This document shows, piece by piece, positions 1,897 to 57,446 of a stretch of DNA of 58,431 bases (the stretch's first letter is position 1; each line of letters opens with the position of its first letter). Origin of the DNA: a virus (Duplodnaviria > Caudoviricetes); IMG/VR virus record IMGVR_UViG_3300021425_000043, positions 1-58,431 of that record. The stretch is one strand, 5' to 3'. The notes below the pieces were generated by a model. The model was not told the origin of the DNA. It ran no database searches and saw only the letters and a program-made list of their open reading frames with translations. The position numbers were made by a program, and so were the translations under genes.

Positions 1897-1920
1897 AAAA
1901 AAGGGGAGCCGAAGCCCCCC
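1897..1920 (-). terminator. rho-independent terminator
   Basis: Minus strand GGGGGGC-TTCG-GCTCCCC followed by TTTTTT, right after the stop at 1927. Confidence 0.85.
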
Positions 1921-1926
1921 GTTAGT

Positions 1927-2706
1927 TTAGGCTGAAGCAAACATGTTTGTAGTATGTTCTTTAGTAGCCTGGTTTAGCTCAGTTGCAACTTTGACAGAAG
2001 AATCAGCGTGATTCTTGAAGTTCCACTCAGCTAGTCGCTGTTGACGTCTTTCGATCTCATTTCTGACACGAACATCTTTTAGAGACAGATCGTGCAATCC
2101 GAATGATTCACCGATAAGACCAACAACAGCTGACAACATACGAGCTTTGCGACCGAGACCGAACATCTTCTCCTCACGCTCAACCAACCATACTGGTAAG
2201 TCATCGTTTGGATTAGCTGATTCAGTTTCTTCTTTGTACTCGTACGCAATAGACGCGAACTCTGCCCAAGTCCTGGTTGTCAACTGTAAGAAGTTGATAC
2301 CTGTTGATTGTGGGTCAGTCTCAAGCAATGGCATAAGACCGTCTGCAATCTGTTGAACTTGTTGAAGATAATAATCTTCTTCTTTTTTACGAAGTCCACT
2401 GTCTTCAGTGTTAAATACCATAGGTGTATTCTTTTTAGACTTGAATACTTCCATAATACCTTCTACTCTTGATGGCTGAGCAATTGGCTTGCCTTCGCCG
2501 TCAATAGAATATTTTCTGTAGTAAAAGTCAGGCAGATGCACAGGGTCCTGTGTTGCCCTGAGTTCACTACCAACTGGGTCACCGTTGGTGTCTGGTTTCC
2601 ATGCAGACTCTGGTGTTTTTTGGTCAGGCAGGAGCTCGCCTGTCTCACCGTTAGCCATGTCTACTATTTCTGGACCTAAGTCCGATGGGTCAAAATGATT
2701 TGCCAT
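1927..2706 (-). CDS. hypothetical protein
   Basis: ORF track 1927..2766; likely start MANHF at 2706 preceded by AGGAGG. Confidence 0.7.
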   Translation of the reverse strand: MANHFDPSDLGPEIVDMANGETGELLPDQKTPESAWKPDTNGDPVGSELRATQDPVHLPDFYYRKYSIDGEGKPIAQPSRVEGIMEVFKSKKNTPMVFNTEDSGLRKKEEDYYLQQVQQIADGLMPLLETDPQSTGINFLQLTTRTWAEFASIAYEYKEETESANPNDDLPVWLVEREEKMFGLGRKARMLSAVVGLIGESFGLHDLSLKDVRVRNEIERRQQRLAEWNFKNHADSSVKVATELNQATKEHTTNMFASA

Positions 2707-2851
2707 AATTACCTCCTTGGTTGGCGTTGATATCAACTCTTCTGATGAACTGCTTAAGCACCTCACCAGAAGACATAAATTCAGCTTGCGATTGTATTTC
2801 GCTTGCTTCGGCTTTTTCTAGCACCTCGTTGGGTACATGTACTTCTTCCAT
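2690..2851 (-). CDS. small hypothetical protein (53 aa)
   Basis: Read by hand: MEEVHVPNEVLEKAEASEIQ...; AAGGAGG RBS; overlaps start of next gene. Confidence 0.6.
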   Translation of the reverse strand: MEEVHVPNEVLEKAEASEIQSQAEFMSSGEVLKQFIRRVDINANQGGNYGKSF

Positions 2852-2961
2852 ACAAACCTCCTTGTAATAATAATGAAATACATTCTACTTACTAACTCGC
2901 ATGAGACATTTGTAATGGATCATGCACATATAAAGAGCCAGCACATTGTGCTGACCTTTTT

Positions 2962-2995
2962 AAAAAAGAAAAAAAGCTCGGCTTTTCATCCGAGC
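2962..2995 (-). terminator. probable rho-independent terminator
   Basis: GCTCGG/CCGAGC stem (2976-2995) followed on minus strand by a long T tract. Confidence 0.6.
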
Positions 2996-3110
2996 ATGTG
3001 CTTTTCGTAACAACCGCCCCGAGCTTTAATACGTCCTCGGGGTGACGTTGTGAGTGCTGGGTAGTCTCAAAGGACGTTCTGTATATTCCCCCAGATTCAC
3101 TCGTTGCCAA

Positions 3111-3326
3111 CTAAGCTACTGCTGTTGCTGGCTGTTCAACTGACTGAGCTTTTGGCTCAATCAGTCTTTTGAAGACTTTCACTTGGTTGCCGTCACTGTC
3201 CAATGGAACAGCTACGTCAAAGTGTAGAGTCTCGCTACCATCTTTGTTGGTAGTTGCAATTCCGATTTCTCTACTTCTAGATTTACCGTCTTTGCCTGCT
3301 TTTAAAATGTATAATGAATACAACAT
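3111..3326 (-). CDS. small hypothetical protein, possibly nucleic-acid binding
   Basis: 71 aa, AGGAGG RBS, beta-rich 'REIGIATTNKDGS..LHFD' pattern. Confidence 0.65.
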   Translation of the reverse strand: MLYSLYILKAGKDGKSRSREIGIATTNKDGSETLHFDVAVPLDSDGNQVKVFKRLIEPKAQSVEQPATAVA

Positions 3327-3394
3327 AATTTACCTCCTAGGTAAGTAATAATTAATGAGTCGATACACCCGTACCAACTTCATATAAATACACA

Positions 3395-3427
3395 CTAGCG
3401 CAGGACATCTATGATGGCCCGCGCCAG
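3395..3427 (-). promoter_or_regulatory. conserved hairpin motif copy 1 (CCATC-AWA-GATG...GCTAGT)
   Basis: Imperfect inverted repeat upstream of gene ending at 3326; two more copies at 4192 and 4866. Confidence 0.7.
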
Positions 3428-3439
3428 AGCGCTGTGCTA

Positions 3440-3967
3440 CTACTTGGAGATTGTTCTCCAAGTAATGTTGTAGCGTGTTTTGTTTTCCAGCGGTGTTGAT
3501 ACGCCGTGCGCGAGTTGGTTAAAGAACTCGCGATTGCCAATGATTAGCTCTCCGTTGTGGAGAGTAATCTTGTCGGCGGTGTAATCAAACACTGCTGGGG
3601 CTCCGAGGCTTAAAGATGCGATAGAGCCTTTGAGCTCTTTTTCGTCGTCTTTGTGTTTGTTGAGCTTTTGTCCTGGTTTATATTGATTAATAAGAACGTG
3701 GTTAAAGCTTTCGCCTGTTGTTTTGTTGAGCCAAGTAGTCAAAAGCTTAACTTTTGGTGTGTAGCCGGTGGCTATATGTGAACGGCCAGAGTAAATGTAG
3801 TTTAATCCGCGTTCGCCAAGCCAAGCTGTGCCTCTGCCGAATTCTTGTGTGAAGCTGAGCTGTTGCAGTTCAACAAGCAGAGGAGAAGCAAACTCAGGCT
3901 TGAGGGTCTGAGTTGCTTTTCGTAGTTGTGCTCCTGTGTTGTTAGTGTAAAGTGTTTCAAAATTCAT
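3440..3967 (-). CDS. AlkB-family 2OG-Fe(II) dioxygenase
   Basis: FNHVLINQY, HKD (HxD), IASLSLG, distal HGV and RYNITWR motifs of AlkB/ALKBH-like enzymes. Confidence 0.85.
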   Translation of the reverse strand: MNFETLYTNNTGAQLRKATQTLKPEFASPLLVELQQLSFTQEFGRGTAWLGERGLNYIYSGRSHIATGYTPKVKLLTTWLNKTTGESFNHVLINQYKPGQKLNKHKDDEKELKGSIASLSLGAPAVFDYTADKITLHNGELIIGNREFFNQLAHGVSTPLENKTRYNITWRTISK

Positions 3968-3977
3968 TTGTTTCTCC

Positions 3978-4151
3978 TTAATTAAATTTAACTCCCAATT
4001 TCAACTTAACAGTTAACTGTTCAATAAGCTGTGATTGTTCGTTTACTTGTTTTTCTAATTCTTGAATTTGTTTAGATGCTTCGTCTAGAATTGCAATTGC
4101 TTTGTCTTCCAATTCTTTTCGTATTCTTTGTTGTTCTAATAGTTTGTTCAT
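3978..4151 (-). CDS. small coiled-coil protein (57 aa)
   Basis: Read by hand: MNKLLEQQRIRKELEDKAIAILDEASKQIQELEKQVNEQSQLIEQL...; AGGAG RBS. Confidence 0.7.
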   Translation of the reverse strand: MNKLLEQQRIRKELEDKAIAILDEASKQIQELEKQVNEQSQLIEQLTVKLKLGVKFN

Positions 4152-4191
4152 AACAATCTCCTAATATGAATTAATAATACTCCTGTACATA

Positions 4192-4224
4192 CTAGCGATA
4201 GGGCATCTATGATGGCCATCGCTG
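4192..4224 (-). promoter_or_regulatory. conserved hairpin motif copy 2
   Basis: Plus strand AGCGAT-A-GG-G-CATC-TAT-GATG-G-CC-ATCGCT, upstream of gene starting at 4151. Confidence 0.7.
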
Positions 4225-4229
4225 ATATT

Positions 4230-4515
4230 TGGTTCCACTGGTTCCACTTGGTTCCACGAGTCATGGAACACAAAAAAGGTGATAACGATGCGTAGTTAGA
4301 GGTTTGGTTCCACTGGTTCCACTTGTTTTAGGTTAAGTTAATCTTTATTCATTAACCGTTGTCCGTGGTCCGTTACAAAACTAGGTTTTGTTTTACGCGG
4401 AACCACGGAACCACAAGTGTTGCAGATGCACACAAACACGCATTGCTATGCATATTTTGTATGGTTCCACGACTTGGTTCCACATCGGCATATTCCCGTG
4501 GAACACAAGGAACCA
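4230..4515. repeat. array of short TGGTTCCAC/GGAAC repeats in both orientations
   Basis: TGGTTCCAC at 4230, 4239, 4249, 4305, 4314, 4462, 4475; inverted GGAAC(CA) copies near 4265, 4399, 4407, 4500, 4509. Confidence 0.85.
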
Positions 4516-4574
4516 AAAATATATAACAATAATGCAAGTCGCAACTCGACATTGCACATTGATGATAGTAGTTA

Positions 4575-4604
4575 AATAAAAAAAGAAGGGGGCTGGACAC
4601 CCCC
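4575..4604 (-). terminator. probable rho-independent terminator
   Basis: GGGGG-N7-CCCCC then TTCTTTTTTT on minus strand after the stop at 4612. Confidence 0.65.
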
Positions 4605-4611
4605 ATTGATG

Positions 4612-4821
4612 CTAGGACTTAGCTTTGAGTTCAAGCTCTAATTGCTTAGGCTTTCTATTAGATATATAACCCTGTGCCATGGCTGAGCCATATTTGACAG
4701 TGGTTTGTTTTACAGAATCGATACCAGACTTAAGAGAAGAAGTGGATAAAGAATCGACACCGTTGTGAACTGACGCGGTCATTGAACCAAGGCCAGTGAA
4801 TAGTTTTGTCATGTAGTTCAT
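4612..4821 (-). CDS. hypothetical protein, first gene of the minus arm
   Basis: 69 aa ORF, AAGGAG RBS, terminator downstream. Confidence 0.65.
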   Translation of the reverse strand: MNYMTKLFTGLGSMTASVHNGVDSLSTSSLKSGIDSVKQTTVKYGSAMAQGYISNRKPKQLELELKAKS

Positions 4822-4865
4822 AATTTACTCCTTATATAAATGAATTAATAACACCCTAATACATA

Positions 4866-4896
4866 CTAGCTTTGTACATCTTTGATGGACACAGCT
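4866..4896 (-). promoter_or_regulatory. conserved hairpin motif copy 3
   Basis: Plus strand AGCT-T-TGT-A-CATC-TTT-GATG-G-ACA-C-AGCT, upstream of gene starting at 4821. Confidence 0.7.
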
Positions 4897-5026
4897 TTTT
4901 TCAATACAAGGTTCCAAGTAGTAAAATGACAGTTAGTTTCTGAGATTTGGAAAGGGGGGGAAGGGGGTCTGTGGTGATAGTAGTAACCGATGTCAGAGCG
5001 ATACTCACACATTTTTTCAAAAAAAT

Positions 5027-5070
5027 TTTTCCACAAAAAATTTACAAGTTATCCACAAATAAGATATGCT
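5027..5070 (+). promoter_or_regulatory. putative sigma70 promoter of terS with two DnaA-box-like 9-mers
   Basis: TTTACA (5041)-18 nt-TATGCT (5065); TTTTCCACA at 5027 and TTATCCACA at 5049. Confidence 0.5.
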
Positions 5071-5077
5071 TACGAGT

Positions 5078-5599
5078 ATGAGCTTAGTTGCAGATCAATC
5101 GACCACGGTCACCGAACAAGATAGATTGGAACTCCAATCACATTTTCCGTACGCGGGTGTAAAGTTATCCGAGCTTTCGGTTCAAGAAGAAAGATTAATT
5201 TTGTATTTTTTACGTGGCATGAGCAAAGCGGCAGCGGGCCGTGCGGCGGGGTACAGGAACCAAGATTCCGTGTACGAAGCTTTTAAGCGACCAAAGATTA
5301 TGCAGGCCATCGAGTATCTAAGAGAAGAGATGCGCGAAGAGGTTAGGTTCGATAAAAATACCGCGACCCAATTATATTTAGAAGCACATCGTAAATCAGC
5401 AACCGCGACTGAAGAAAAAAATGTCGTAGATTCGTTGTGCAAGCTCCACGGTCTATTCGCTCCAGAGCAAGCAACCCAAGTTAATATTAATTTAGATAAA
5501 ATCCAGCAACTAGAAAGACTGTCCGATTCTGAGTTGTTAAAGTTAGCTGGAGTAGATACAAAGTACCTAGAACCCCAAGGAGAAAATAATGGCGAATGA
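5078..5599 (+). CDS. terS: terminase small subunit
   Basis: HTH-like 'GMSKAAAGRAAGY', 'LCKLHGLF' C-terminal pattern, first gene of packaging arm upstream of terL; start 5066 or 5078. Confidence 0.7.
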   Translation: MSLVADQSTTVTEQDRLELQSHFPYAGVKLSELSVQEERLILYFLRGMSKAAAGRAAGYRNQDSVYEAFKRPKIMQAIEYLREEMREEVRFDKNTATQLYLEAHRKSATATEEKNVVDSLCKLHGLFAPEQATQVNINLDKIQQLERLSDSELLKLAGVDTKYLEPQGENNGE

Positions 5600-18978: not shown

Positions 18979-21900
18979 ATGGCTATACCAAAAGAGTTTA
19001 TAGGGAGTCAGTCTGAAAGAGACATAAGGGCTAACAACCTTAAAGACTTAGAGCCTTTAATAGGTACTCAATCTAAAAGAATTCTTGGGCCAGAAGATCG
19101 TGTAGAAGTTGATGATTTAACTTCTGGCATAGAACGTTTCCGTGCCTCTTTTAAAGCTGGACAAGCTAACCTTGTAAGTTCCCTTGCTAACTTTGATGCT
19201 TCTGTAGCGGCTTTGACCGGCAACGAAGAGAGGATGAATGAATCCTTAAAACGAGCAAAAGATGAACAAGAGGTAGGAGCTTATTATCTTTTAGACAGCC
19301 AACCTTTCGAAGAATTTATCAAAGCGCCTACTTTTAGTGGCTTCGTAGATAGTGCTATAGAAGCAACCGGTCAATTTGCCCCCACCGCAATCACAAGTGT
19401 TATTGCAGCCCTAGCGGGTGCAGGAGTAGGAGCGAGCTTGAGCTACTTAACAGGCTCTAGTAGTTTGTTTGCTGCAGCTGGTAGTACTGGTTTGACCACT
19501 ATACCTGCTAGTTTAGCTTCAAGAAAGTTTATTCAAACTGAAGTAGAAGATATCTTAAAAAAGAAAGTAACTTTAGATGTTCTTAAAAAACAAGGTAAAA
19601 AGACTGCAATAACTATGACACCTGAAGAGGATAAAGTTGTTAATCTTTTATACCCGTATTTAAGATCCCAACTCAGGAATAAGTACGCAACTAGAGGTGC
19701 CGTAGCGGGCGCTTTTGCACAAGAACAACCTATTGGTGCAGGTATAGCCTTTGGCGATTACGCTGAACAAGATATGACAGACCCCATAACCGCATTTAGA
19801 GCTCAACAACAAGGCGCTACATTTGGCCTGATTGGTGTTGGTAGTGAAGCTTTGATCTATAAAGCTATTGTTGGAAACTTAAAAAGCAAAGCAGCAAAAA
19901 ATCTAATTAACGAGAGAGCTATATTAGATGCTCCTTCAGCTGGTAAATCTACACTTGATATTGTTTCTAGAGGTTTAGGTGCTGGAGTACTCACAGGCGT
20001 TTCTGAAGGGGTAGCAGAAGGCTTGCAAGAAGAACTCTCCGTGCAACAAAAACTTAGAATAGATGACGAATACACGAAGACTCAAGCTAACTTAGATAGG
20101 CTCCAAGCTCTGTATATGGGAGCTATAGGTGGCATGGGAATTGGTACCGGCACTGGTACAAGTACTGCTGTGCTAGGAAAAATGAGAGAACTTGTTGAAA
20201 TAGGGTATGAAAAACGTATGTTTGATTTATACCAAAAAACAAAACAAGGCGAGAATAATCCTATTTTAGAAACACAAACAGATTTAAGTGCACAGTTTAG
20301 AGACCTACAAGACCCTAATATTAATAGAGATTTTGTTTGGGTAGATCAACAAAACTATGAAGAGTTTGGTCCTATTGCAAATAGGATAGAAAAAATATCA
20401 AACCTAGAAAGGACTATGATACCAGGGGTAGGTACTTTCTTTACTCTTGATGGCGACCTTAACCAAAGGTTTGTAAACACTATGAGCGCTGCGCCTTTGA
20501 ATAGAAAAAGACTGTTAGAGTTTTTAGATATTTATGGTAAGAACCCTCCTACTGAAGGTAAGGGCATGAGAGTAGTAGTGTCTGTACGTGGCCAAAACAA
20601 CGAAGTGTTAAAGAGGTATGATGTAGAAGCAGGCGAAGAGGAACAAACTGCTATAACAGCTGCTCAAAATTACATAGGGGGCCCAGATGGTACTAACAAT
20701 AGAAATATTGTTGTGCAAACTTTAGAGGCTTTTAATGAAGAACGTGCAGGTAAACTTCCTGTCCGAGAAGAAGAGTCCGCAATGGAAGAAGACTTAGATG
20801 ACTACGAAGCTAATCAAACTCCTTTTGAAACTTTTACAACTGAACAAGAAAGACTGTTTGCACAAGACACACAAACAGAACCCCAAATAGTACCAGATTT
20901 AAAAGCTAGAAATATTAGAGAACAACAAGGATCTCTTGAAAACCCTATCGGCAGGGAAACTGATGGTAGGCCTTTTGGGGTCGTAAAAAATCAAAAGTTT
21001 GTAGTTAAAAAGGGAGATGAGTTATACAACAAGATATTGAACGGTGCAGAAGACACTACACCTTTAGCCCCAGAGTTTGTTACAGAGTTTGATAGACTAG
21101 TTACAGCAGGAAAAATTAGTGAAGGTGTAGCTAATAGATATTTAAAACTTAATCAAGCTTTAGCCCGTAGTGATTTGTTAGGAAACCAAGCTTACGGTTT
21201 TGGAGAACAATCAGAGGGCATAGTTATTTATAAATATAATATGCCTGGAGTCTCAGCAGCTGTTGGCACACAAAATGTTACTCCTGATTTAGCACAAAAA
21301 GTTGCAGCTATTGTAGGAAGAGGTAGAACTAACAAACCCCCTAAAGATAGGGATCCACGTAGTCAAAGAAGGTTTACAAGGTTTGAATTAGAGAAAGATG
21401 GAGAGAAAACCCCTGTAGACCCTAATAGGTTTACCAATATAGGTAGGAATATATCTAAAGCTTTTGGTAATAATATCGAAGGAGATTTTCAATCTGCTAT
21501 AGGAGGCTTTGGTTTCTTGTTAGCAGAAATGTCCGCAAACGGTTACACCCTTTTATTTGAAGGCAAACCTTTTACTGATGAACAAGCTGGTATTGCTCAA
21601 ATTTATAATAAAGATGGTAGGTCTTTAACTCTTGAGCAAATGCAAAGGCAGATAGGCAGAGAAACAAGCCTACAAAGAAATCGTAATGTGCCTTTGACCG
21701 AGACTTCTACTTTAGAAGGAATAGAAAGAGATGACCTAGAAGCTGCACAAAATTTAGTAGAAGAAGCAGAAAAACAAGTAAAACTAGCAAAAGAAGAACT
21801 TGAACAAGTTAAAGAAGATGTTGAGGTTGAAAAAGCTGCACTTAAGCAAGGCTTAACAGAAGAAGAAATAAGTAGTGGCATGTTTGTAAGCCAAACTGGT

Positions 21901-24873
21901 AAGAAAGTAAAACCTTTTAGACCAAAAGGTCAGCAAGAAGCAGTCAACCTTAGTTCTAGAGAAGCAGCTATAGATAGAAAAGTTGAAAGAGCGGAAAGAA
22001 AATTAACAGCAGCTACAAAAGGAGAGGATGTTGCAAATAATGTTTTCTTCCAAGCAGAGAAACAAGGAGAGCAAGAAATCCAAGAAGATCCAACTGATCA
22101 ATACGCTTTCGATAGCAATCCTTTGTTTAGAGAATGGGCTAAAAAACCTGCGCGGTCTGCAGAACAACGAGAACTAGATGCAACGCAAGCAAAGGCGGGA
22201 AAAGAATATGTGCAATATAGTTCTACTATAGAGAAGCATCTTGGTGTAGAAGTTTTAGATGCTTTAAAAAACATTGCTAAAAATACATTAGGGCTAAATA
22301 GAGAGATGTTATTCTTCAGTGCAGAAGATACTATTGTTCTAGAAGATAAAAATTTAGAAAAAAGAGCAAGAGCTGCACAGGCTAAATTTGGGCCTGAGTC
22401 TAATCAACGTGGTATAAATATACGAGGCCGTGGCAACACTGACGTTATTATTATACAGACTAGAGACGGTTTTAACGCAGAAGACCAAGGAGCTCGACTT
22501 TTTGCTGTAGCCCACGAAATAGGACATTCTTTTATTTATCAAGAATTAGATAGAAGTTTAGGTGTAAAAACCCTTAGAAATGCTTTACAAAAAGCTTTTG
22601 ATGAAGAACTAAAGACTAATACAACTGATCAATATTCTTTGCCGGACGGTAAAGGTTTCCAAGAATGGGTATCAGACCAAGTAGCCGTATTTTTAATTGA
22701 TGAGACTAAGAAAGCTAAAAACCAAACAGAGTCATTCTTTAAAAATATTGCAAATAAAGTAAAAGCTTTCTTCTCTAAGTATGAAGCTGTAGCAAAAAGA
22801 AGGTTCACACAAAACCCTGCTTTTAATGATTATATCCAAGAAGTTATGTCTTCTACTAAAAACAATAAATTTAAGTATGAACAAAAAGCTAGAGTAGAAG
22901 AAAAAATAGAAGAAGTTAAACAGGTATTAGACAAAGGGGCCGCACAAACTCTTAAACGTATAACCAACAAAATTGTAGAAGATGGAGAAATACCTAATTC
23001 TAGAGTAGATGCAGCAACACGTACTCTTAGAACTATCTTTCAAGATGCCGATGGGCTACTTAGGAGTTTTGGAGAACCAGGCAAAGCCTTAGCAAGGCTC
23101 TTTAAGCAAAGAGTGGGTACTAAAGAAAAGACTGCTTACCTAACTAAAGTATTTAGTCTTGCTCGTGCAAAGATGAATGAGATACAAACTATTTTGAACG
23201 TAGAGTCCCCAGGTGATATGAATGAAGCAGTTGAACAAGTATTACAAGAGTTAGAAAATCCAGATACTCCTTTTGAACAGTTATCACCGCAAGCTCAACA
23301 GATGCGCACCTTTTTAATTAAACACTACAACGATTTAAATTTAGGTGAGTTAGGAGTGGGTTTCTTAGAAAACTATTTCCCTAGGTTGTATAAGATAGAA
23401 GAACTATTGAATGACCCTGGTTTAAGAGAAACTTTAATTGAAACCTTAGTTCAATATAATCCTGGCTTGTCAAAAAGTGACGCAACAGATGCTGTTGTAG
23501 ATATGTTACGTGACCCAAGTGAAGATGCTAACTTTAATAGGGCTGCAGAAGATGAGTATGCAGTGGGTATGTTAGCGCAGAGAGCAGAGTTATTTAGAAA
23601 TATACCTACAGATGCTTTAAGAAATGCTGAGCTTTTAGAAGACGCTTCTTACGCTTTACAGAGATACATACAGAACTCTACTAAAAGAAGAGGTTTTGCT
23701 GATTTTGGCGGTACACAAGCCATAGAAGAACAGCTAAGCCTTATAAAAGACCCTAAAGAAAGAGAACTAGCTAAAGATGCAGTTAAAGCAATACTAGGTA
23801 GGGTTGACCCTATAGAGAGTAAAACTTTTAGAAACATTAACAATGCAGGTTTATTTTTTAATGTCACTACATTATTACCTTTATCTGTCTTTGCTTCTTT
23901 CCCAGATCTAGCAGGCCCTATCTTGCGTTACAGAGGCATACCTAACTTTTTAGAGACTATGCGTACTGTTACTGCAGCTATGTCGGAAGCAGAAGTAGAT
24001 CAATTTGCAAAAGATATAGGAGCTGTTGGTATTAATGCTATGAATGAGCAATATGTGGGTGCGGGAGAACTACAGTACACAAGTAAAAAGACTAAAAAAT
24101 GGACTAATAATTTCTTTAGGTTTATACAATTAGAACAGTTTACTAATTTTACTAGACGATTTGCTGCAGGCATGGCCCGTGTATTTTTAATAGATAATGC
24201 GAATAAAGCTTTAGCAGGAGATGAGACTGCACAACGTTACCTAGGAGAGCTTGATGTAACAGCTGACGAAGTTATAGCATGGGGTGGGGGAGATATCACT
24301 GCTCCGTCCCATCAAAGAGTTAGACTAGCGGCTGCTAGATTTGTAGATGAGGCTATTGTTAGACCTAATGCAGCCGAGAGGCCTGTTTGGGCTTCTGATC
24401 CTAGGTTTGCCTTAGTTTGGCAACTTAAGTCTTTCTTTTATTCTTACGGCAAAAACATCGTAATGGGCACAGGTAGAGAGATGCAATCTAGAATGGCAGA
24501 AGTTGGTATGAAAGGGGCTGCAATACCTTTATTTATGGGTGCAGTTACTCTGCTTCCTTTAACTATGTTAGGCCTTGATTTAAGAGAAAGATTTAAAATT
24601 GGTTTAGCTTGGGCGTTGCCGGGTGTTAGCCCTGAAGATAAGAATTATAGAAGGTCTTTAGATATGGACATGGGGGAATATAGCGTTGAGATTATAGATA
24701 GATCTGGAATATTAGGCCCATATACAATGGCGTTGCCTTTATTCATAGAGAGAAAACGTTATGGAGACCCTCTATGGGTAGGGCCATTAGGGCCTACTAT
24801 AGGTACAGGTTATGATTTGATATCGGGTGATATTAAACCAAAGAATTTAATTCCATTTTATTCACCATTATAG
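18979..24873 (+). CDS. large internal virion/polyvalent protein with zincin-like motif
   Basis: 1964 aa; Gly/Ala hydrophobic N-terminal helices, HEIGH plus downstream 'FQEWVSD', helical C-terminal region. Confidence 0.65.
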   Translation: MAIPKEFIGSQSERDIRANNLKDLEPLIGTQSKRILGPEDRVEVDDLTSGIERFRASFKAGQANLVSSLANFDASVAALTGNEERMNESLKRAKDEQEVGAYYLLDSQPFEEFIKAPTFSGFVDSAIEATGQFAPTAITSVIAALAGAGVGASLSYLTGSSSLFAAAGSTGLTTIPASLASRKFIQTEVEDILKKKVTLDVLKKQGKKTAITMTPEEDKVVNLLYPYLRSQLRNKYATRGAVAGAFAQEQPIGAGIAFGDYAEQDMTDPITAFRAQQQGATFGLIGVGSEALIYKAIVGNLKSKAAKNLINERAILDAPSAGKSTLDIVSRGLGAGVLTGVSEGVAEGLQEELSVQQKLRIDDEYTKTQANLDRLQALYMGAIGGMGIGTGTGTSTAVLGKMRELVEIGYEKRMFDLYQKTKQGENNPILETQTDLSAQFRDLQDPNINRDFVWVDQQNYEEFGPIANRIEKISNLERTMIPGVGTFFTLDGDLNQRFVNTMSAAPLNRKRLLEFLDIYGKNPPTEGKGMRVVVSVRGQNNEVLKRYDVEAGEEEQTAITAAQNYIGGPDGTNNRNIVVQTLEAFNEERAGKLPVREEESAMEEDLDDYEANQTPFETFTTEQERLFAQDTQTEPQIVPDLKARNIREQQGSLENPIGRETDGRPFGVVKNQKFVVKKGDELYNKILNGAEDTTPLAPEFVTEFDRLVTAGKISEGVANRYLKLNQALARSDLLGNQAYGFGEQSEGIVIYKYNMPGVSAAVGTQNVTPDLAQKVAAIVGRGRTNKPPKDRDPRSQRRFTRFELEKDGEKTPVDPNRFTNIGRNISKAFGNNIEGDFQSAIGGFGFLLAEMSANGYTLLFEGKPFTDEQAGIAQIYNKDGRSLTLEQMQRQIGRETSLQRNRNVPLTETSTLEGIERDDLEAAQNLVEEAEKQVKLAKEELEQVKEDVEVEKAALKQGLTEEEISSGMFVSQTGKKVKPFRPKGQQEAVNLSSREAAIDRKVERAERKLTAATKGEDVANNVFFQAEKQGEQEIQEDPTDQYAFDSNPLFREWAKKPARSAEQRELDATQAKAGKEYVQYSSTIEKHLGVEVLDALKNIAKNTLGLNREMLFFSAEDTIVLEDKNLEKRARAAQAKFGPESNQRGINIRGRGNTDVIIIQTRDGFNAEDQGARLFAVAHEIGHSFIYQELDRSLGVKTLRNALQKAFDEELKTNTTDQYSLPDGKGFQEWVSDQVAVFLIDETKKAKNQTESFFKNIANKVKAFFSKYEAVAKRRFTQNPAFNDYIQEVMSSTKNNKFKYEQKARVEEKIEEVKQVLDKGAAQTLKRITNKIVEDGEIPNSRVDAATRTLRTIFQDADGLLRSFGEPGKALARLFKQRVGTKEKTAYLTKVFSLARAKMNEIQTILNVESPGDMNEAVEQVLQELENPDTPFEQLSPQAQQMRTFLIKHYNDLNLGELGVGFLENYFPRLYKIEELLNDPGLRETLIETLVQYNPGLSKSDATDAVVDMLRDPSEDANFNRAAEDEYAVGMLAQRAELFRNIPTDALRNAELLEDASYALQRYIQNSTKRRGFADFGGTQAIEEQLSLIKDPKERELAKDAVKAILGRVDPIESKTFRNINNAGLFFNVTTLLPLSVFASFPDLAGPILRYRGIPNFLETMRTVTAAMSEAEVDQFAKDIGAVGINAMNEQYVGAGELQYTSKKTKKWTNNFFRFIQLEQFTNFTRRFAAGMARVFLIDNANKALAGDETAQRYLGELDVTADEVIAWGGGDITAPSHQRVRLAAARFVDEAIVRPNAAERPVWASDPRFALVWQLKSFFYSYGKNIVMGTGREMQSRMAEVGMKGAAIPLFMGAVTLLPLTMLGLDLRERFKIGLAWALPGVSPEDKNYRRSLDMDMGEYSVEIIDRSGILGPYTMALPLFIERKRYGDPLWVGPLGPTIGTGYDLISGDIKPKNLIPFYSPL

Positions 24874-40269: not shown

Positions 40270-40616
40270 CCGAAGCGATTACGGTAATCCAAGAAGTTGG
40301 TTTTCCTATAGCAGCTGCAGCTGGTTTAGGTTGGTTTATTTATAAACTAATCATGCGTATTGTGGACGGTATGGAGACAAAACTTGATACCGTAGATGAA
40401 AAAGTAGAATCTCAAATAGCAGCCATAGAAGAACGACTAGGCACAAAACTTGACTCACAGCATGGTATTTTAGTAGCCTTAATAGACAGGGTGCGTAGTT
40501 TAGATAACGAAATTATAAGACAAGACACTTTGATAAAGACTATTCTTGGCGTACCTCAACTAATAGATAGCAATAAAATTGCTAAGGCGGATAGAGATGA
40601 CCAAAGAAAAGATTAA
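40266..40616 (+). CDS. membrane-anchored coiled-coil protein
   Basis: 'IQEVGFPIAAA' N-terminal TM, then coiled coil; overlaps both neighbours. Confidence 0.65.
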   Translation: MTEAITVIQEVGFPIAAAAGLGWFIYKLIMRIVDGMETKLDTVDEKVESQIAAIEERLGTKLDSQHGILVALIDRVRSLDNEIIRQDTLIKTILGVPQLIDSNKIAKADRDDQRKD

Positions 40617-41139
40617 AAGAAAAAGAGGCAGACCCTCTAACGCAGAACTAAAGCGTAGAAAAGAAGAAAGGGAAAAGGATCTTATCCTAAGGGTATTGCT
40701 TGCGATAGGGGTTTTTCTAATTGGTGCTATAGTTTCACAAAACTTATTAGCAGACCAAATGACCCATAAGTTTAAGTCTCCTTCTTTTAGTGGAGAAAAT
40801 ACTTCTAGTCACTACCTAACAATAGATAATGTTGAATACACTAGAAAAATGTCTATAAAAGCAGAATTAAAAGCTTTGCAAGACCAAATAAAAAGAGACA
40901 AAGAGAACACAACCCTTGCTAGATTTGTCCGTAATTTAGAGTCTAGGATTTATGCACAGTTGTCTAGACAACTTGTAGAAGCTTTGTTTGGAGAGACTCC
41001 AAGCGATAATGGTACAATTGAGTTAGAAGGTAATACAATTACCTATAGTGTAGTAGACGGTATAATAACTCTAACTGTGGTGGACTCGGACGGCAATGAA
41101 ACAATTATTCAAATTCCTATCGGTAGTTTTACTTTCTAG
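40597..41139 (+). CDS. csgF: curli assembly protein CsgF homolog
   Basis: Hydrophobic signal/TM then 'HKFKSPSFSG' (cf. CsgF F.NP.FGG), 'F..NLESRIYAQLS', C-terminal 'TIIQIP'; directly before csgG. Confidence 0.8.
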   Translation: MTKEKIKRKRGRPSNAELKRRKEEREKDLILRVLLAIGVFLIGAIVSQNLLADQMTHKFKSPSFSGENTSSHYLTIDNVEYTRKMSIKAELKALQDQIKRDKENTTLARFVRNLESRIYAQLSRQLVEALFGETPSDNGTIELEGNTITYSVVDGIITLTVVDSDGNETIIQIPIGSFTF

Positions 41140-41956
41140 TTGTGCGTCCTTAATATTTGACCCGATAGAAAATAACATAGGCCCAATCCAAAAAATAGAA
41201 AGGGCAGAGGTAGAAACACTCGCAGTATCTAATCTTTCTTCTGTTGGAGTGCCAACACGTAAACCAGTCATTGCAGTTTATCCTACAAGTTTTACAGACC
41301 AAACAGGACAAAGGTTAAGCAATTCAAGCTACGCTTCTTTCTCTACTGCAATAACTCAACTACCAAGTGCCTATTTAATAAGAGCTTTGCATAAAGCAGG
41401 CTCGGATCACGGGGGGTTTTTTACTGTAGTTGAAAGGGTAGGTTTAGATAACTTAACTAAAGAACGCCAAATTATAAGAAGCACTAGAGAAAAAGAAGAT
41501 AATGCCAAGGAGCTAGGGGCCCTTTTGTTCGCAGGTTTAATTATAGAAGGGGGTGTGATAGGATATGAGAGTAACGTTACGTCTGGCGGTGCTGGAGCAC
41601 GCTATTTAGGCTTAGGTGCAACCAAAGCGTATAGAAGAGATTCAGTAACAGTACAACTTAGGTTGGTATCTGTTACAACGGGAAAAGTTTTGCTAGAGAC
41701 ACTGGTGACTAAAACAATACTAAGTGCCTCATTAAGTAACGATGTTTTTCGATTTATTTCTGATAATACAGAGTTAGTCGAAATAGAAAGTGGTGTTGTA
41801 AGAAACGAATCCGGAGGATTGGCTTTAAGGGCCGCCATAGAAACAGCAGTTCTGCAGATAATTAAGGAGGGTACAGAAGCAGGCTATTGGAGTATACATG
41901 AAAAATATAAAACTATTGATTGCGATGCTGATTGTGTCGCCTCTGTACGCGGCTGA
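41096..41956 (+). CDS. csgG: curli secretion channel CsgG homolog (lipoprotein)
   Basis: Lipobox LSSC; 'FTDQTGQR', 'FSTAITQ', 'VVERVGLDNLTKERQIIR', 'EGGVIGYESN..SGGAGARYLG', 'YRRD.VTV.LR.V'. Confidence 0.92.
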   Translation: MKQLFKFLSVVLLSSCASLIFDPIENNIGPIQKIERAEVETLAVSNLSSVGVPTRKPVIAVYPTSFTDQTGQRLSNSSYASFSTAITQLPSAYLIRALHKAGSDHGGFFTVVERVGLDNLTKERQIIRSTREKEDNAKELGALLFAGLIIEGGVIGYESNVTSGGAGARYLGLGATKAYRRDSVTVQLRLVSVTTGKVLLETLVTKTILSASLSNDVFRFISDNTELVEIESGVVRNESGGLALRAAIETAVLQIIKEGTEAGYWSIHEKYKTIDCDADCVASVRG

Positions 41957-42608
41957 TAACGAAATATATGTAGATCAAGCCGGTGCTACTTTAAACCTAG
42001 ACTTAGAACAACTTGGTTCTGGTAATATTATAGGCGGGCTTAATGCTGCTGCTGGTAGTATGACTGCTCTTGACCTTGATGGCGCTACTATGACTTTAGA
42101 CATAAACCAAATAGGTGGTTCTAATACATTTTTAGGGGATATTTTAGCTGACAATTTTACAGGTTTTTTTGAGTTTGATGGAGACAGTAATGACTTTACA
42201 ATCCAAGTAGACCCTACTAATACCTATGGAGCTGACGGTAGTAATCTTAATGTAGACGTTACAGGAGACAGCAACGACTTTACGTTAAACGTAGGGACAA
42301 CAGCTTTAACTGGTAATTTAGACTTAGATTGGATTATAAATGGTTCTAGTAATACATTTGATTTTGATATTAACTACGATGGTGCTACATCTTATGTAGA
42401 CGTAGATGGTGATTCTAACAATGTTACATTTGATGGTTCAGGCTATGCAGGCGGATATTTTTACCTTGACCAAACAGGTAATAGTAGAACATTTAATATT
42501 CAACAACTGAGTACCCAAGATAATGACTGGCTTAAAATTATATCTAACGGTAATGGTGGTACTGTTTGCGTCATTCAAAACGACCAAGGCACAGGCACAA
42601 GCTGTTAA
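41898..42608 (+). CDS. secreted curlin-like beta-solenoid protein
   Basis: Sec signal then 'DNEIYVDQAG' and repeated x-G-(D/S/G)-S-N turns with alternating hydrophobics; C-terminal Cys pair. Confidence 0.7.
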   Translation: MKNIKLLIAMLIVSPLYAADNEIYVDQAGATLNLDLEQLGSGNIIGGLNAAAGSMTALDLDGATMTLDINQIGGSNTFLGDILADNFTGFFEFDGDSNDFTIQVDPTNTYGADGSNLNVDVTGDSNDFTLNVGTTALTGNLDLDWIINGSSNTFDFDINYDGATSYVDVDGDSNNVTFDGSGYAGGYFYLDQTGNSRTFNIQQLSTQDNDWLKIISNGNGGTVCVIQNDQGTGTSC

Positions 42609-43632
42609 TATTGGAGATATTTCTGAACTAAAAGGGACTGCTAGCGTCTTAAGAGACCAACCTTACGGCGCTGAATTAGATTTTGACATTCAACAAATGG
42701 ATGACGTTCGTACAACTAACGGACGTGTAGGCATAACATTCCTGGACAATTCTATTGTACGACTGACGGAACATTCTAAACTTGTCATAACTGAATACAT
42801 TTACGACCCTGACCCTTCAAAAGGTAAAATGGCCATGACGTTTGCTAGCGGTACGGCTAGGTTTATAAGCAGTAAACTAGGCAAGATTGATAAAAAAAAC
42901 ATAAAACTTTCTACACCTACAGCTGACATTGCAATTCGTGGGACTGATTTTACGTGTACCGTAGACGAACTTGGACGTTCGCTTATTATTTTACTACCTG
43001 ATGCTAACGGTTTATCTAGTGGCGAAATACTTGTTACAACCGCTGCAGGCACAGTTACTTTAAACAGACCTTATGAAGCTACGACTGTTAATGTATTTGA
43101 AAACGCACCTAGTAAACCTGTTATATTAGATTTAACTTTAGACATAATAGACAACATGTTGATTGTTAGTCCTCCGGACGAATCAAAGTTATCCACAGAA
43201 TCATCCACAACGTCCGGAAATACTGGGGCAATTTTAGATATAGACTATTTAGAGTTTGAGGATTTAGAGTTTGATTATCTAGCAGAAGACTCGCTTGAAT
43301 TTAGTGAGCTTGATATAAATTATTTAGATGTTAATTTTTTTGAAGATTTATTAGAAGTTATAGAAGAATTAGATACTTTGGGAGACCAGGCATTGACTAC
43401 AGGTTCAGTGCTGCAGGGCACAACCTTTGGGCAAGATTTAGTTACGCAAATTACAACTTTTAAACAAGATGAAAGCATTATTTTAGAAAGAGCAGTAACG
43501 CAAGCTACTAAGTTGACCCTAAACATATCGCAGGGCTATACTATAATATTACTGCAGGATGGTAAAACACAACAAGTGTTAATAAATGGTGGAGGTGACT
43601 CTACTATAAGGATTACACAGGGGTCAGGATGA
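42523..43632 (+). CDS. FecR-domain periplasmic protein
   Basis: Signal peptide; 'DDVRT...ITFLDNS.VRL.EHS.L', 'GTARF', 'TPTADIAIRGTDF'; acidic linker and beta-rich C-terminus. Confidence 0.82.
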   Translation: MTGLKLYLTVMVVLFASFKTTKAQAQAVNIGDISELKGTASVLRDQPYGAELDFDIQQMDDVRTTNGRVGITFLDNSIVRLTEHSKLVITEYIYDPDPSKGKMAMTFASGTARFISSKLGKIDKKNIKLSTPTADIAIRGTDFTCTVDELGRSLIILLPDANGLSSGEILVTTAAGTVTLNRPYEATTVNVFENAPSKPVILDLTLDIIDNMLIVSPPDESKLSTESSTTSGNTGAILDIDYLEFEDLEFDYLAEDSLEFSELDINYLDVNFFEDLLEVIEELDTLGDQALTTGSVLQGTTFGQDLVTQITTFKQDESIILERAVTQATKLTLNISQGYTIILLQDGKTQQVLINGGGDSTIRITQGSG

Positions 43633-45380
43633 AGAAATGGATTTCGTTATTAGCAATACCAATACTAGCTATACCACTGCTGTTTAACTGGCAGGCACTA
43701 GAGATACTTAAATTAAAAACATTTGATGCTTTCGTACAAAAACAAGATCCATCTGGCTGGTTTGTAACTTTAGATATAACAGAAGAAGATGTAGCAACTG
43801 CAGGTGGGTGGCCGTACCCGCGTCAGGACTTGGCACGCATTCATTTAGATTTATTAGAAGCAGGAGCTTTAGGTGTAGGTTGGGTTGTTGCTTTTCCACA
43901 AGCAGATAGGTTTGGTGGCGACCAAGCATTTGGAGATGCTTTGTTACAAGGTGCGAGTGTTATTGCTACTTTTGAAGGTGGGGCTTCGTATGCACCTACC
44001 ACAGGCACAGTCATACTAGGAGATGGTATACCTATAGAAGCTATAAAAGCTCAAGGTGTTATTGGAAATGTACCCGTGCTAGCAGAGTCAGCTTACCAGG
44101 GGCTGGCAGTTGCACGAACTGACGTAGATAATTTAGTTAGACGTTTACCCTTACTATTACAAACACCTGATGGTTGGACGCCGTCTTTTGGTATACAAGT
44201 AATGAAGATGATTGGTGGCGCAGATACGTACATTATTAAAGGGCAGCAAGGGCAGATAGAAGAACTGACTGTACCTAACTACGCACAAATACCTGTAGAT
44301 AGCATTGGGCGTCGTTGGGTGTCTTGGGTTGATACGCCAAGCACAAGCCTAGAAGAGATGGATGTACGAGATAAATTTGTGTTTATAGGCGTGAGTGCAA
44401 AAGGTGTTATGCCTCAAATAGCTACGCCAGTTGGATTGTTGTACCCACATGAGATACAAGCTGCACTAGCTGAGAGTATGACAATGGATGTACCAGCTAT
44501 ACCAGGCAATGCTCTATTATATGAATTACTTATATTAGTTACAGTACTAACCTTAGCCATAGTTATAATACGTACATTAGGGCTCGTCGGAACTTTAGTA
44601 GGGACCGTGGGCCTCGTATCGTTAACCGCGGTCGGAGGTTGGTACTTAATTGCATCGAATATACTTATAGATGTTACTTATAGTATATTATCAGCCATAC
44701 TTATATCTATTCAAGAATTTTATTTACGCTTTAACGAACAATTTAAACTTAGACAATTAATAAAGAAACAGTTTGAACACTACTTAGATCCGAAACAAGT
44801 TGCACGATTACAAAACAACCCTGGCTTATTACAATTAGGTGGAGAAAAACGTATATGTACATTCTTGTTCACAGACGTCAGAGGGTTCACGAATCTGTCC
44901 GAAAAATTATCTCCTGAAGAAGTAACAGAAATAATGAATAAAGTTCTTACTGTACAAGTTACATGTATTCAAGCACATGGTGGTATGGTAGATAAGTTTA
45001 TAGGCGACGCATGTATGGCCATCTTTAATGCCCCCCTATCTATAGATGAACATGAAAAACGTGCAGTCGCCTGTGCTCAGGATATGCGTACGGCTATTCG
45101 CATGCTGCAAAAAGAATTGTCCGAACCAATTGCAATAGGCATAGGTGTTAATACAGGCGAAGCAGTAATAGGTAACATGGGCTCAGATACTAGGTTTGAT
45201 TATTCAGCAATAGGAGATGCGGTAAATACGGCTGCACGATTAGAGAGTGCAACTAAAGAAGCTGGAGTAGATATTTTAATTGGAGAAACTACTGCTAAGA
45301 AGATGTTGTATGATCTGACACTATTAGCTCCTATAAAAGTAAAAGGTAAAGCAAAACCTTTAAAGGTGTATACTATATAA
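43629..45380 (+). CDS. CHASE2-domain class III adenylate cyclase
   Basis: CHASE2 'GGWPYPR', 'D.DNLVRR.PL', 'DKFVFIG', 3 TM helices; cyclase FTDVRGFT, DKFIGD, DYSAIGDAVNTAARLE. Confidence 0.92.
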   Translation: MKKWISLLAIPILAIPLLFNWQALEILKLKTFDAFVQKQDPSGWFVTLDITEEDVATAGGWPYPRQDLARIHLDLLEAGALGVGWVVAFPQADRFGGDQAFGDALLQGASVIATFEGGASYAPTTGTVILGDGIPIEAIKAQGVIGNVPVLAESAYQGLAVARTDVDNLVRRLPLLLQTPDGWTPSFGIQVMKMIGGADTYIIKGQQGQIEELTVPNYAQIPVDSIGRRWVSWVDTPSTSLEEMDVRDKFVFIGVSAKGVMPQIATPVGLLYPHEIQAALAESMTMDVPAIPGNALLYELLILVTVLTLAIVIIRTLGLVGTLVGTVGLVSLTAVGGWYLIASNILIDVTYSILSAILISIQEFYLRFNEQFKLRQLIKKQFEHYLDPKQVARLQNNPGLLQLGGEKRICTFLFTDVRGFTNLSEKLSPEEVTEIMNKVLTVQVTCIQAHGGMVDKFIGDACMAIFNAPLSIDEHEKRAVACAQDMRTAIRMLQKELSEPIAIGIGVNTGEAVIGNMGSDTRFDYSAIGDAVNTAARLESATKEAGVDILIGETTAKKMLYDLTLLAPIKVKGKAKPLKVYTI

Positions 45381-57267: not shown

Positions 57268-57446
57268 TAAGTTAACCTCCATAATAAATAAATAATACAC
57301 CCGAGGCCGATTCCGACACCGAGCAGAAGCAACGAGTATTGAATACTAGTTGCAAGACCGAATAATAAAAACAACACAGCTGTGCCGGTCAACACAGAAA
57401 TACCAAAGTCTTTGGCATATTGTTTACATTTTGATAACTTCTCCAT
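57267..57446 (-). CDS. small 2-TM membrane protein
   Basis: MEKLSKCKQYAKDFGISVLTG...; GAGGAGG RBS. Confidence 0.6.
   Translation of the reverse strand: MEKLSKCKQYAKDFGISVLTGTAVLFLLFGLATSIQYSLLLLGVGIGLGCIIYLLWRLT

Follow-up and report, generated by a model that had tools for sequence, protein, structure and literature searches.

The window analysed here is the whole of virus record IMGVR_UViG_3300021425_000043 (58,431 bases, with an estimated completeness of about 98%), whose gene layout in PHROG and Pfam scans is podovirus-like. Its early genes, on the minus strand, are headed by four copies of a short element, all on that strand between positions 2885 and 4901. On the gene strand the element consists, 5' to 3', of an imperfect hairpin of 12–16 base pairs (bp), a box reading (G)C-TAGTRTGTA that is joined directly to it, and a leader with a Shine-Dalgarno site. 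The initial annotation of this DNA had reported three such hairpins, and all three were recovered on the minus strand as it described them; the total, however, is four, as an additional copy (c4), with the core CATT-ACA-AATG, was first found by a hairpin scan. The copies are listed here in the order in which they are met on the gene strand, each with its score in the covariance model described below.

Element copies

4855–4901, minus strand: c3 (site A); hairpin at about 4868–4896 (AGCTGTGTCCATC-AAA-GATGTACAAAGCT), box GCTAGTATGTA at 4860–4870; heads gene 1; 52.4 bits
4181–4228, minus strand: c2 (site B); hairpin at about 4194–4223 with a one-base bulge, box at 4186–4196; 7 nucleotides (nt) past the last iteron; 49.3 bits
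3384–3430, minus strand: c1; hairpin at about 3398–3424, box at 3389–3399; 13 nt past the stop codon of the AlkB-like gene; 59.1 bits
2885–2931, minus strand: c4; hairpin at 2899–2925 (GCATGATCCATT-ACA-AATGTCTCATGC), degenerate box GAGTTAGTA at about 2890–2898; 47.8 bits

The box lies 34–38 nt from the ATG in three of the four copies and 62 nt from it in c1, whose leader contains a second hairpin. The three hairpins originally noticed had been placed some 40–70 nt upstream of the ATGs at 3326, 4151 and 4821, and the distances measured from the element ends are 69, 41 and 45 nt, respectively. The mismatches noted in the first of them (c1) are G-T pairs on the minus strand, as had been stated, and with such pairs the c1 hairpin can be extended to 3395–3427. 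The core CCATCAWAGATG occurs exactly three times in the window (3406–3417, 4204–4215 and 4877–4888), always on the minus strand, and at up to one mismatch it has six matches against 0.43 expected, a number that none of 100 shuffles reached. GCTAGTRTGTA likewise occurs exactly three times (3389–3399, 4186–4196 and 4860–4870, all minus), with six matches against 2.45 expected at up to one mismatch; because 5 of 100 shuffles also reach six, the box sequence alone is weak evidence, not far above chance. A covariance model built from 16 copies (in the window and four relatives) and run with its filters off detected just the four copies in the window, each on the minus strand, at 47.8–59.1 bits; the next best candidate scored 12.4 bits. 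These hits are confined to the 2 kilobases (kb) that head the leftward arm, with zero elsewhere in the 58 kb. The exact core-plus-box pattern was met at 32 loci in viral contigs, one of which (L022, the same contig as L058) is true by the model and 31 of which are chance matches. A comparison with Rfam, which the initial annotation had suggested alongside a covariance-model search of relatives, gave no match at E ≤ 1 for positions 2500–5300 on either strand.

Selection on the pairing

The pairing of the hairpin is clearly under selection. In the first alignment, of 16 sequences, 92.1% of cells pair, against 32.0–37.7% when the 3' partners are slid by 1–3 columns, and 10 of the 12 pairs have changed on both sides. 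The search of relatives extended this conserved pairing to homologous loci: the enlarged alignment comprises 35 hits from eight sources, or 26 distinct rows, in which 89.9% of cells pair against 32.5–36.5% after sliding, the paired percentage being biased upward, since the alignment was fitted by the model and many of its copies came initially from a hairpin scan. The per-position pair diversity is free of this bias; again 10 of the 12 pairs have changed on both sides, and the covariation score was reached by none of 500 shuffles. A CATC-N3-GATG core had been taken to be invariant, which does not hold, as the core changes through matched substitutions in c4 and in the relatives, where CATC/GATG is found beside CATT/AATG, CAGC/GCTG, GACC/GGTC and CAGG/CCTG. 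The outer stems differ in sequence and yet pair as originally written, and copies from one genome share the core and box but not the stems. When the four window copies are folded as RNA, their z values against shuffles are -2.15, -2.70, -4.96 and -0.78, so fold stability alone is not striking and the case is carried by covariation. Covariation and position support the original proposal of a structure-dependent signal ahead of the early genes.

The shape that is kept includes a defect. Five pairs below the loop, a non-pairing position of two pyrimidines is retained in 20 of the 26 distinct rows (C.T in 16, T.C in two, T.T and C.C in one each) and is paired, as C-G, in the other six; further mismatches or bulges interrupt the stems of 12–16 bp. 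The loop has 3 nt in 23 of the 26 distinct copies, 2 nt in two and 4 nt in one, the gene-strand loops being ACA (11), ATA (4), GCA (4), AGA (2), AAA (1), CTA (1), the 2-nt TA (2) and the 4-nt TACA (1). At its 3' end the stem merges with the box, and across the first 16 copies the A at box position 2 is invariant and the T at position 6 nearly so.

These substitutions bear directly on the operator that the initial annotation had also suggested, taken here as a palindrome to which a dimeric phage repressor would bind in duplex DNA. Its attraction is that CCATC-N3-GATGY forms a 12-bp palindrome in three window copies. However, copies from the same genome have different half-sites, whose substitutions are matched (CATC/GATG, CATT/AATG and GACC/GGTC in L073), and compensatory change of this kind argues for base pairing and not for half-site recognition. 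In addition, one position regularly interrupts the palindrome, and the outer stems are unrelated in sequence. An operator is thus disfavoured, to the point of being very improbable.

Sister lineages and exchange of modules

The large terminase has 211 confirmed relatives in IMG/VR; the relatives compared here are the best 80 of these 211 terminase loci (85–96% identity), many of which stop short of the early region. Strong model hits occur in only four of the 80 (L050, L058, L073 and L074), and L061 has a weak hit of 20 bits. BLAST of positions 2600–5100 against the 80 loci delineated three conserved blocks (5100–4950; 4520–4230, corresponding to the iterons; and 3377–2600) with breaks at the elements, and homology to L037 ends at 4230 and restarts at 3377. 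At two anchors, namely site A after TTGGAACCTTGT and site B after the last iteron, relatives carry other hairpins, each followed by a short box of its own: TTCCATATAG, TTTCTATAG, ATATTYAYTT or, after a two-tier hairpin containing CAGTCGC, a YTRGTRTGT-like sequence. Box types were assigned by eye where both anchors are visible, which is in 24 distinct loci; the type was alike at both in 17, probably alike in L087 and unclear in L056, while five loci showed no element within the 75 nt viewed at site A. One of these five, L104, does have a site A box, which differs from its site B. In the TTCCATATAG lineage there are exactly two hairpin-linked boxes per locus, both on the early strand, even where the locus measures 17.6 kb and takes in 9.6 kb of the structural arm. 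Three loci of that lineage also keep, on the strand opposite the early genes, a TTCCATTTAG box flanked by an 8-bp inverted repeat (CTACAGTC ... GACTGTAG), at about 3344 in L066, 3483 in L086 and 3203 in L110 (plus strand of the loci).

Whole modules have been exchanged between relatives. Both flanks of the c1 site are common to the window and L040, with the last part of the AlkB-like gene on one side and the leader of the following 71-residue gene on the other, but the hairpin-plus-box modules between them differ, the swapped modules measuring about 45 nt between conserved flanks. At the c4 site an element is present in genomes of the window's type and L037 has other hairpins, while in L040 and L046 a weaker terminator, with a weaker T run, is followed directly by the ribosome site with no element between; where the terminator at this site is strong, the element is present. 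In KPP25 (L116), a more distant cultured relative, two hairpins of 9–11 bp with C-GGA-G triloops lie at about 24031 and 24332 on the plus strand, each 40 nt ahead of one of the first two early genes, and a scan of the KPP25 genome for hairpins with a 3-nt loop and at least seven matched pairs found no further GGA-loop hairpin. The gene-strand GGA loop matches the very stable GNA mini-hairpin form, which phage N4 uses on the template strand. Swappable units of hairpin plus box of this kind make up a family that extends through a widespread group of uncultured marine podoviruses. Judged from titles and the openings of abstracts, and leaving supplements aside, the KPP25/Kochitakasuvirus literature contains no transcription study, and the early-gene hairpin-plus-box element appears to be undescribed.

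Breaks of homology at the elements recall the PeSLs of T4-type phages, which are cassettes running from a stop codon to the next ATG, with a stem-loop between or over the -35 and -10 boxes and G-T pairs in the stem, and which mediate modular shuffling (PMC2839356). The likeness is one of genomic behaviour, and in this respect PeSLs are the closest known system: both are conserved composite cassettes that span the distance from a stop codon to the next ATG of small early genes, include a stem-loop and mark points of gene replacement (PMC2839356). It could accordingly be proposed that the element is a composite of a host sigma-70 promoter (a -35-like TnGnCA in the 5' arm, a spacing of 17–18 bp and TAGTRT) with a stem-loop that attenuates upstream transcription, the cassette also acting as a recombination linker and no phage-specific reader being involved. 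Homology that breaks exactly at the elements would agree with this, as would the invariant A and nearly invariant T at box positions 2 and 6, which would stand as -11A and -7T, and the conserved shuffling cassettes of T4-type phages, with a stem-loop at -35/-10, offer a precedent (PMC2839356). However, PeSLs as described there have strong sigma-70-type boxes, stems with G/C runs and dozens of copies per myovirus genome, whereas the elements here are without a convincing sigma-70 pair and have an A/T-containing stem, a fixed mismatch and triloop, 2–5 copies per podovirus genome and lineage-specific boxes. The strong sigma-70 boxes that a PeSL requires are absent: by manual reading the consensus is matched at 6–8 of 12 positions, the consensus scan listed no site, and sister-lineage boxes give no consistent -10/-35 pair. 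Further, the hairpins have no U run, and stems that vary within a genome while core and box are kept point to selection on those parts rather than to plain gene conversion. A PeSL-like composite is improbable.

Layout of the early region

On the minus strand the order is a conserved non-coding block, c3, gene 1, a terminator, the iterons, c2, a 57-residue gene, the AlkB-like gene, c1, the conserved 71-residue gene, two terminator-like hairpins, c4, more genes and a last terminator. One element heads each early unit, and a terminator closes three of the four units. The features other than the elements are as follows.

4917–5065, minus strand: non-coding block upstream of site A, present in all lineages, with an A/T tract, a TATCGCT motif, a C-rich, G-poor tract and TTGGAACCTTGT
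4612–4821, minus strand: gene 1 (69 residues), the first early gene, of a fast-diverging small-protein family found in all sister lineages
4588–4604, minus strand: intrinsic-terminator-like hairpin with a T run, read 4604 to 4588, which closes unit 1; equivalents in L131 and L086
4231–4482, minus strand: iteron block, seven copies of TGGAACC, adjoining site B and kept across lineages whatever the element type
2936–2995, minus strand: two terminator-like hairpins (2976–2995 with a T7 run, and 2936–2956) that close unit 2 just before c4
1903–1920, minus strand: terminator-like hairpin, read 1920 to 1903, which closes the unit headed by c4

The same arrangement recurs with other element sequences and numbers. 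In L131, with five elements, gene 1 and a terminator come after the first and a double terminator stands before the fifth, and L086, which has another element type, has two elements, a strong terminator ending each unit and the iteron block between. In the window c4 starts about 5 nt past the tail of the terminator, leaving no space for a separate promoter between them, and c1 sits between two genes that no terminator separates. A consensus scan of positions 2821–5065 yielded zero sigma-70-like sites on the gene strand, and of four promoter-like sites in L131 3500–8207 none is on the gene strand. Two motifs, TTGAAA and TATAT(C), are retained upstream of site A, but they stand only 9–10 nt apart, so that no sigma-70 promoter can be assigned there. 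A motif containing CGCTC is also conserved about 100 nt upstream of site A, and it may resemble boxA. Between the conserved TATCGCT motif and site A lies the C-rich, G-poor tract (4925–4975, minus strand), which is kept across lineages in composition and not in sequence; a similar tract stands ahead of the first KPP25 hairpin (KPP25 23920–24010). Such a tract would fit a transcribed, unstructured leader, and if the elements act as RNA a host-type promoter should lie in the block at 4917–5065. On the other strand, TTATCCACA at 5049–5057 falls in the spacer of a promoter-like site (TTTACA-18-TATGCT) before the small terminase gene and is kept in many relatives; it is presumably a perfect DnaA box.

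The iterons themselves are the best-conserved non-coding stretch among the relatives, with up to 93.8% identity to L037. TGGAACC occurs 12 times in the window against 4.58 expected, and an eighth clustered copy lies at 4910–4916 (minus strand), just upstream of site A. The block is probably a replication origin bound by the primase-helicase (encoded at 49629–52118), and this neighbourhood raises the prospect of a DNA-level signal unrelated to transcription: a nick site of the phage tf type, a lagging-strand priming site for the phage primase-helicase by the origin, or a structure-specific recombination site. Site B adjoins the iterons, a single TGGAACC precedes site A, and module boundaries coincide with the elements, all of which would suit such a signal; as a lead only, the box matches the tf nick consensus TACT/RTGMC at six of nine positions (PMC3517423). 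However, in that account the tf nick sites are genome-wide, no hairpins are reported for them, and a change at position 3, where the box differs, is not tolerated (PMC3517423). Gene-strand orientation and a fixed distance to the ribosome site are likewise unexpected of nick or priming sites, and PHROG and Pfam scans of the window list no integrase or HUH nuclease. A signal of this sort is highly improbable.

The reading that we favour, tentatively and at less than even confidence, is that the element is a lineage-specific, structure-assisted signal of the promoter type for the start of a unit, with a putative reader. In this model the box would supply the -10 or initiation region and the palindrome an upstream recognition part that would be read by its shape and not by its sequence, so that the 5' end of the messenger RNA would fall within the box or immediately past it. 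Host RNA polymerase assisted by a phage factor could be the reader, as could a phage enzyme not recognised by searches on sequence and fold. The layout is that expected of a start-of-unit signal, because there is one element per unit, no other promoter is seen, c4 comes right after terminators and the cassette to the ribosome site is fixed; the lineage-specific boxes argue for a phage-encoded reader and against plain recognition by host sigma-70. We infer both the start of transcription at the element and the strand or molecule on which the hairpin would be read. As to the initial proposal that TAGTAT is a -10 hexamer, it may apply in the window's lineage, but the boxes of sister lineages misfit a sigma-70 -10 at the equivalent place.

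The terminators can also be given a different role. An antitermination RNA akin to lambda nut or HK022 put would require that the leader hairpin and box, alone or with a small phage protein, let host RNA polymerase pass the terminators of the early arm. Strong terminators do lie within that arm, right after gene 1 in three lineages, and at least one element stands ahead of every terminator in its unit. In L040 and L046 the conserved gene past the c4-site terminator has its ribosome site directly after that terminator; neither an element nor a promoter intervenes, and read-through is therefore needed there. The lambda nut/N and HK022 put systems, too, combine a hairpin with a linear box in early leaders upstream of terminators, the first copy lying before the first early gene, as nutL does before N, and their specificity differs among lambdoid phages. 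The gene-1 family may add to the likeness, as it is universal, diverges fast and co-occurs with the element type (all 10 loci of the MN[YI]M..HNG subfamily). However, the order of the parts is reversed relative to nut, with the hairpin first and the box second; stems vary within a genome, the four to five copies per genome exceed the one or two that would suffice, the fixed distance to the ribosome site and ATG is not expected of a nut site, and c4 comes after, not before, its adjoining terminators. Moreover, the motif of gene 1 that resembles a clamp-binding one points to replication and not to RNA binding, the co-occurrence of gene 1 with site A may be plain linkage, and no N-like protein was recognised by PHROG, Pfam or a relaxed Pfam search of 10 proteins. 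Antitermination is, on this balance, decidedly unlikely.

Strand of the signal and the search for a reader

For the window's own element type the strand on which the hairpin forms is not decided by G-T pairs. Among its 18 copies the gene strand is the more stable in 10, the other strand in 7, and the two are equal in 1; the folds contain 17 versus 2 G-U pairs, mostly one outer pair or the G/T-rich box. In the stems of the model alignment there are 18 G-T or T-G against 7 A-C or C-A, and 13 of those 18 are in the outermost pair. Nine sequencing runs labelled as RNA each held at most 0.10 of the words, and the four that were examined gave short, low-depth contigs of relatives over 2600–3377, 4264–4562 and 5011–5049 with no usable joints, starts or ends.

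A number of results weigh against a promoter-type signal and are best taken together. For the CAGTCGC-type sister elements the computed folding energies are -19 to -23.5 kcal/mol on the gene strand and -9 to -12 on the other, which favours, for that type, a reading as RNA or gene-strand DNA. A conserved mismatch and bulges should hinder extrusion of a cruciform from duplex DNA. The fit to sigma-70 is weak, the best match by manual reading being TGGCCA-18-TAGTAT at 8 of 12 positions, and sister-lineage boxes have no consistent TAnnnT beside the hairpin. As for the reader, PHROG and Pfam scans of the window list no RNA polymerase or sigma factor, and a relaxed Pfam search (E ≤ 10) of 10 early or unknown proteins gave no sigma or polymerase domain. 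PF00940 (RNA_pol) has zero matches in six frames, a test in which the control genomes were silent too, and the DxDGD motif is absent from all virion proteins and is matched only by two frames of the accessory region. The 843-residue virion protein has a poor AlphaFold model (pLDDT 58.8) with no Foldseek match in the PDB at E ≤ 0.001; it has no ESM Atlas hit of at least 0.8 and, by sequence, only two PDB hits at E 0.22–0.9. The 1964-residue virion protein (18979–24873, plus strand) has no PDB match by sequence and displays Gly/Ala-rich hydrophobic stretches, a coiled-coil region, a zinc-peptidase-like motif (HEIGH) and hydrophobic segments towards the C terminus. In the ESM Atlas it is nearest to LPD39, LPD22, LPD38, MuF_C and internal-core clusters, and from these features it looks like a polyvalent or internal-core protein that is probably injected. 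In the A1002 structure paper the term 'RNA polymerase' occurs zero times. The lack of a reader, the imperfect hairpins and the sense-strand folding of one sister type pull towards an RNA element.

Such an element could be a punctuation of the early RNA, in which hairpin and box would form a processing or stability site in a polycistronic transcript, and cleavage at or beside the box would leave a protective 3' hairpin on one message and the 5' end of the next. It would then resemble the RNase III sites of T7, which are irregular hairpins before each early gene, the first included, about 30–40 nt from the start codon. The elements here likewise precede each early block, the first included, at a fairly fixed distance from the ATG, and c1 lies between two genes without a terminator. 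An imperfect hairpin with a conserved internal mismatch is what protein-read RNA hairpins often show. G-U pairs make the gene-strand fold of the CAGTCGC type far more stable than that of the other strand and extend the c1 fold into its box, and the conserved block with the C-rich, G-poor tract upstream of site A looks as if it were transcribed. However, processing requires a promoter upstream of every unit, and none was detected in the window or in L131; c4 directly follows two terminators, the early arm here being broken by intrinsic terminators unlike that of T7; and the window's type shows no strand bias. The stems of 12–16 bp are shorter than classical RNase III substrates, which span about two helical turns, and than the T7 sites, and are joined to a lineage-specific box for which a host RNase would not account. 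RNA punctuation is unlikely, and is the alternative to be taken most seriously. It shares with the promoter-type reading the prediction of mature 5' ends at the box, the two differing in the chemistry of those ends.

Gene 1 is of interest as a possible partner of the element. Its family, of 60–100 residues, supplies the first or second early gene in every lineage, with equivalents in L037, L040, L046, L051, L066, L075, L092, L098, L114 and L115, and keeps a C-terminal motif Q-x-E-hydrophobic-x-hydrophobic (QLELEL, QGEFDF, QAEFDF, QMELEV, QPELP). As a lead only, this motif resembles the bacterial sliding-clamp-binding motif. The protein may thus serve in takeover of host replication or in recruitment of the clamp, and the likeness would, to that extent, argue against gene 1 as the nucleic-acid reader. 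All loci with the MN[YI]M..HNG subfamily of gene 1 have 3–5 model hits (the window, L050, L058, L073, L074 and five of five further loci fetched by protein), several of these loci being near-identical viruses; outside the subfamily there is one weak hit, of 20 bits, in one locus. The co-occurrence of gene 1 with the element type may reflect simple linkage to site A. Gene 1 and KPP25 gp27 are not significantly similar (E 0.18).

A broader version of the promoter-type reading can also be formulated, although it is more doubtful and is put forward as a rather unlikely one. In a large group of uncultured marine podoviruses, distant relatives of KPP25 that lack a recognisable phage RNA polymerase or sigma factor, the earliest genes would be transcribed from hairpin promoters read by shape. 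A phage factor that is injected or made very early, and that has escaped recognition, would read them, its specificity having diversified between lineages together with the box.

Comparison with known promoters

The early promoters of N4 are the closest known system in logic. They are hairpins with variable stems and a fixed loop and start bases, read by an injected virion RNA polymerase (PMC4496689). As with the elements here, a few copies head the early region, 3-nt-loop hairpins vary in their stems while the loop, loop-proximal and start bases are fixed, and units end at a terminator (PMC4496689). However, the membership in the N4 class that the initial annotation had considered could not be sustained, and by its stem, loop and strand the element is not an N4-type promoter, although a promoter working in the manner of N4's is what the favoured reading describes. 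N4 stems measure 5–7 bp against 12–16 bp with a conserved mismatch here, and the N4 template loop is 5'-GNA-3' closed by C:G, whereas the template loop here is TNT, the gene-strand loop being mostly ANA (PMC4496689). N4, furthermore, encodes a giant virion polymerase, and none was found in the window by sequence searches or by a fold search with the 843-residue protein.

A second comparison concerns the box. The promoters of the phiEco32 sigma factor gp36 have a single AATGTA box near -11.5 and no -35 element, and the box of the present element, also a short T/G/A sequence, contains RTGTA, a short-motif lead only (PMC12276001). In phiEco32, however, the box serves middle and late genes and no hairpin is described for it there, and in the window no sigma-like gene was found (PMC12276001).

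Genome context

The two-arm, divergent layout of the window is common to the KPP25/phiR18 group.

From 5066, plus strand: rightward arm, with small and large terminase, portal, major head protein, the 843- and 1964-residue virion proteins and tail fibres
From near 4900 off the start of the record, resuming at 58431 down to about 45941, minus strand: leftward arm, with early and replication genes

The leftward arm encodes small early proteins, the AlkB-like oxygenase, a MoxR-like ATPase, a VWA/metallopeptidase protein, DNA polymerase A, primase-helicase, exonuclease and helicase. It is cut at both record ends, with an open reading frame running off the start (1–395, minus) and the VWA/metallopeptidase (DUF2201) gene running off the end (57424–58431, minus), and therefore the genome is circularly permuted or the record was opened arbitrarily within this arm. 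The MoxR-like AAA ATPase at 404–1420 would be the usual partner of the DUF2201 gene. The AlkB-like 2OG-Fe(II) oxygenase (PF13532, E 1.6e-15; 3440–3967, minus) is among the earliest genes and is common to L040 and L114, whose element types differ from that of the window. An accessory cluster at 40579–45380 (plus) encodes CsgF-like and CsgG-like proteins, a FecR-domain protein and a CHASE2 domain fused to an adenylate/guanylate cyclase; the closest CsgG relatives, at six loci in mixed proteobacterial assemblies (38–65% identity), do not decide the host. By the major head protein the nearest cultured relatives are the Pseudomonas phages KPP25, phiR18 and their kin, at 51.1% identity, and a DNA search of positions 2800–5400 against 50,697 phage records gave zero matches.

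Significance

How early transcription starts in phages without a polymerase of their own is little known beyond a few model systems, and the phage group that carries these elements is common in marine metagenomes (the 211 terminase relatives came from one scan). A promoter role would imply a so far unrecognised reader and a new route to structure-dependent initiation; were the shape-read promoters of KPP25-related podoviruses to prove true, they would represent a second, independent instance of structure-dependent promoter recognition in the style of N4, and the swappable hairpin-plus-box module would be the unit of early-region evolution. If the element acts instead as RNA, it would be an undescribed leader element for processing or antitermination. 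Either way, the element provides a ready marker of early-unit boundaries in these genomes and a small, portable part.

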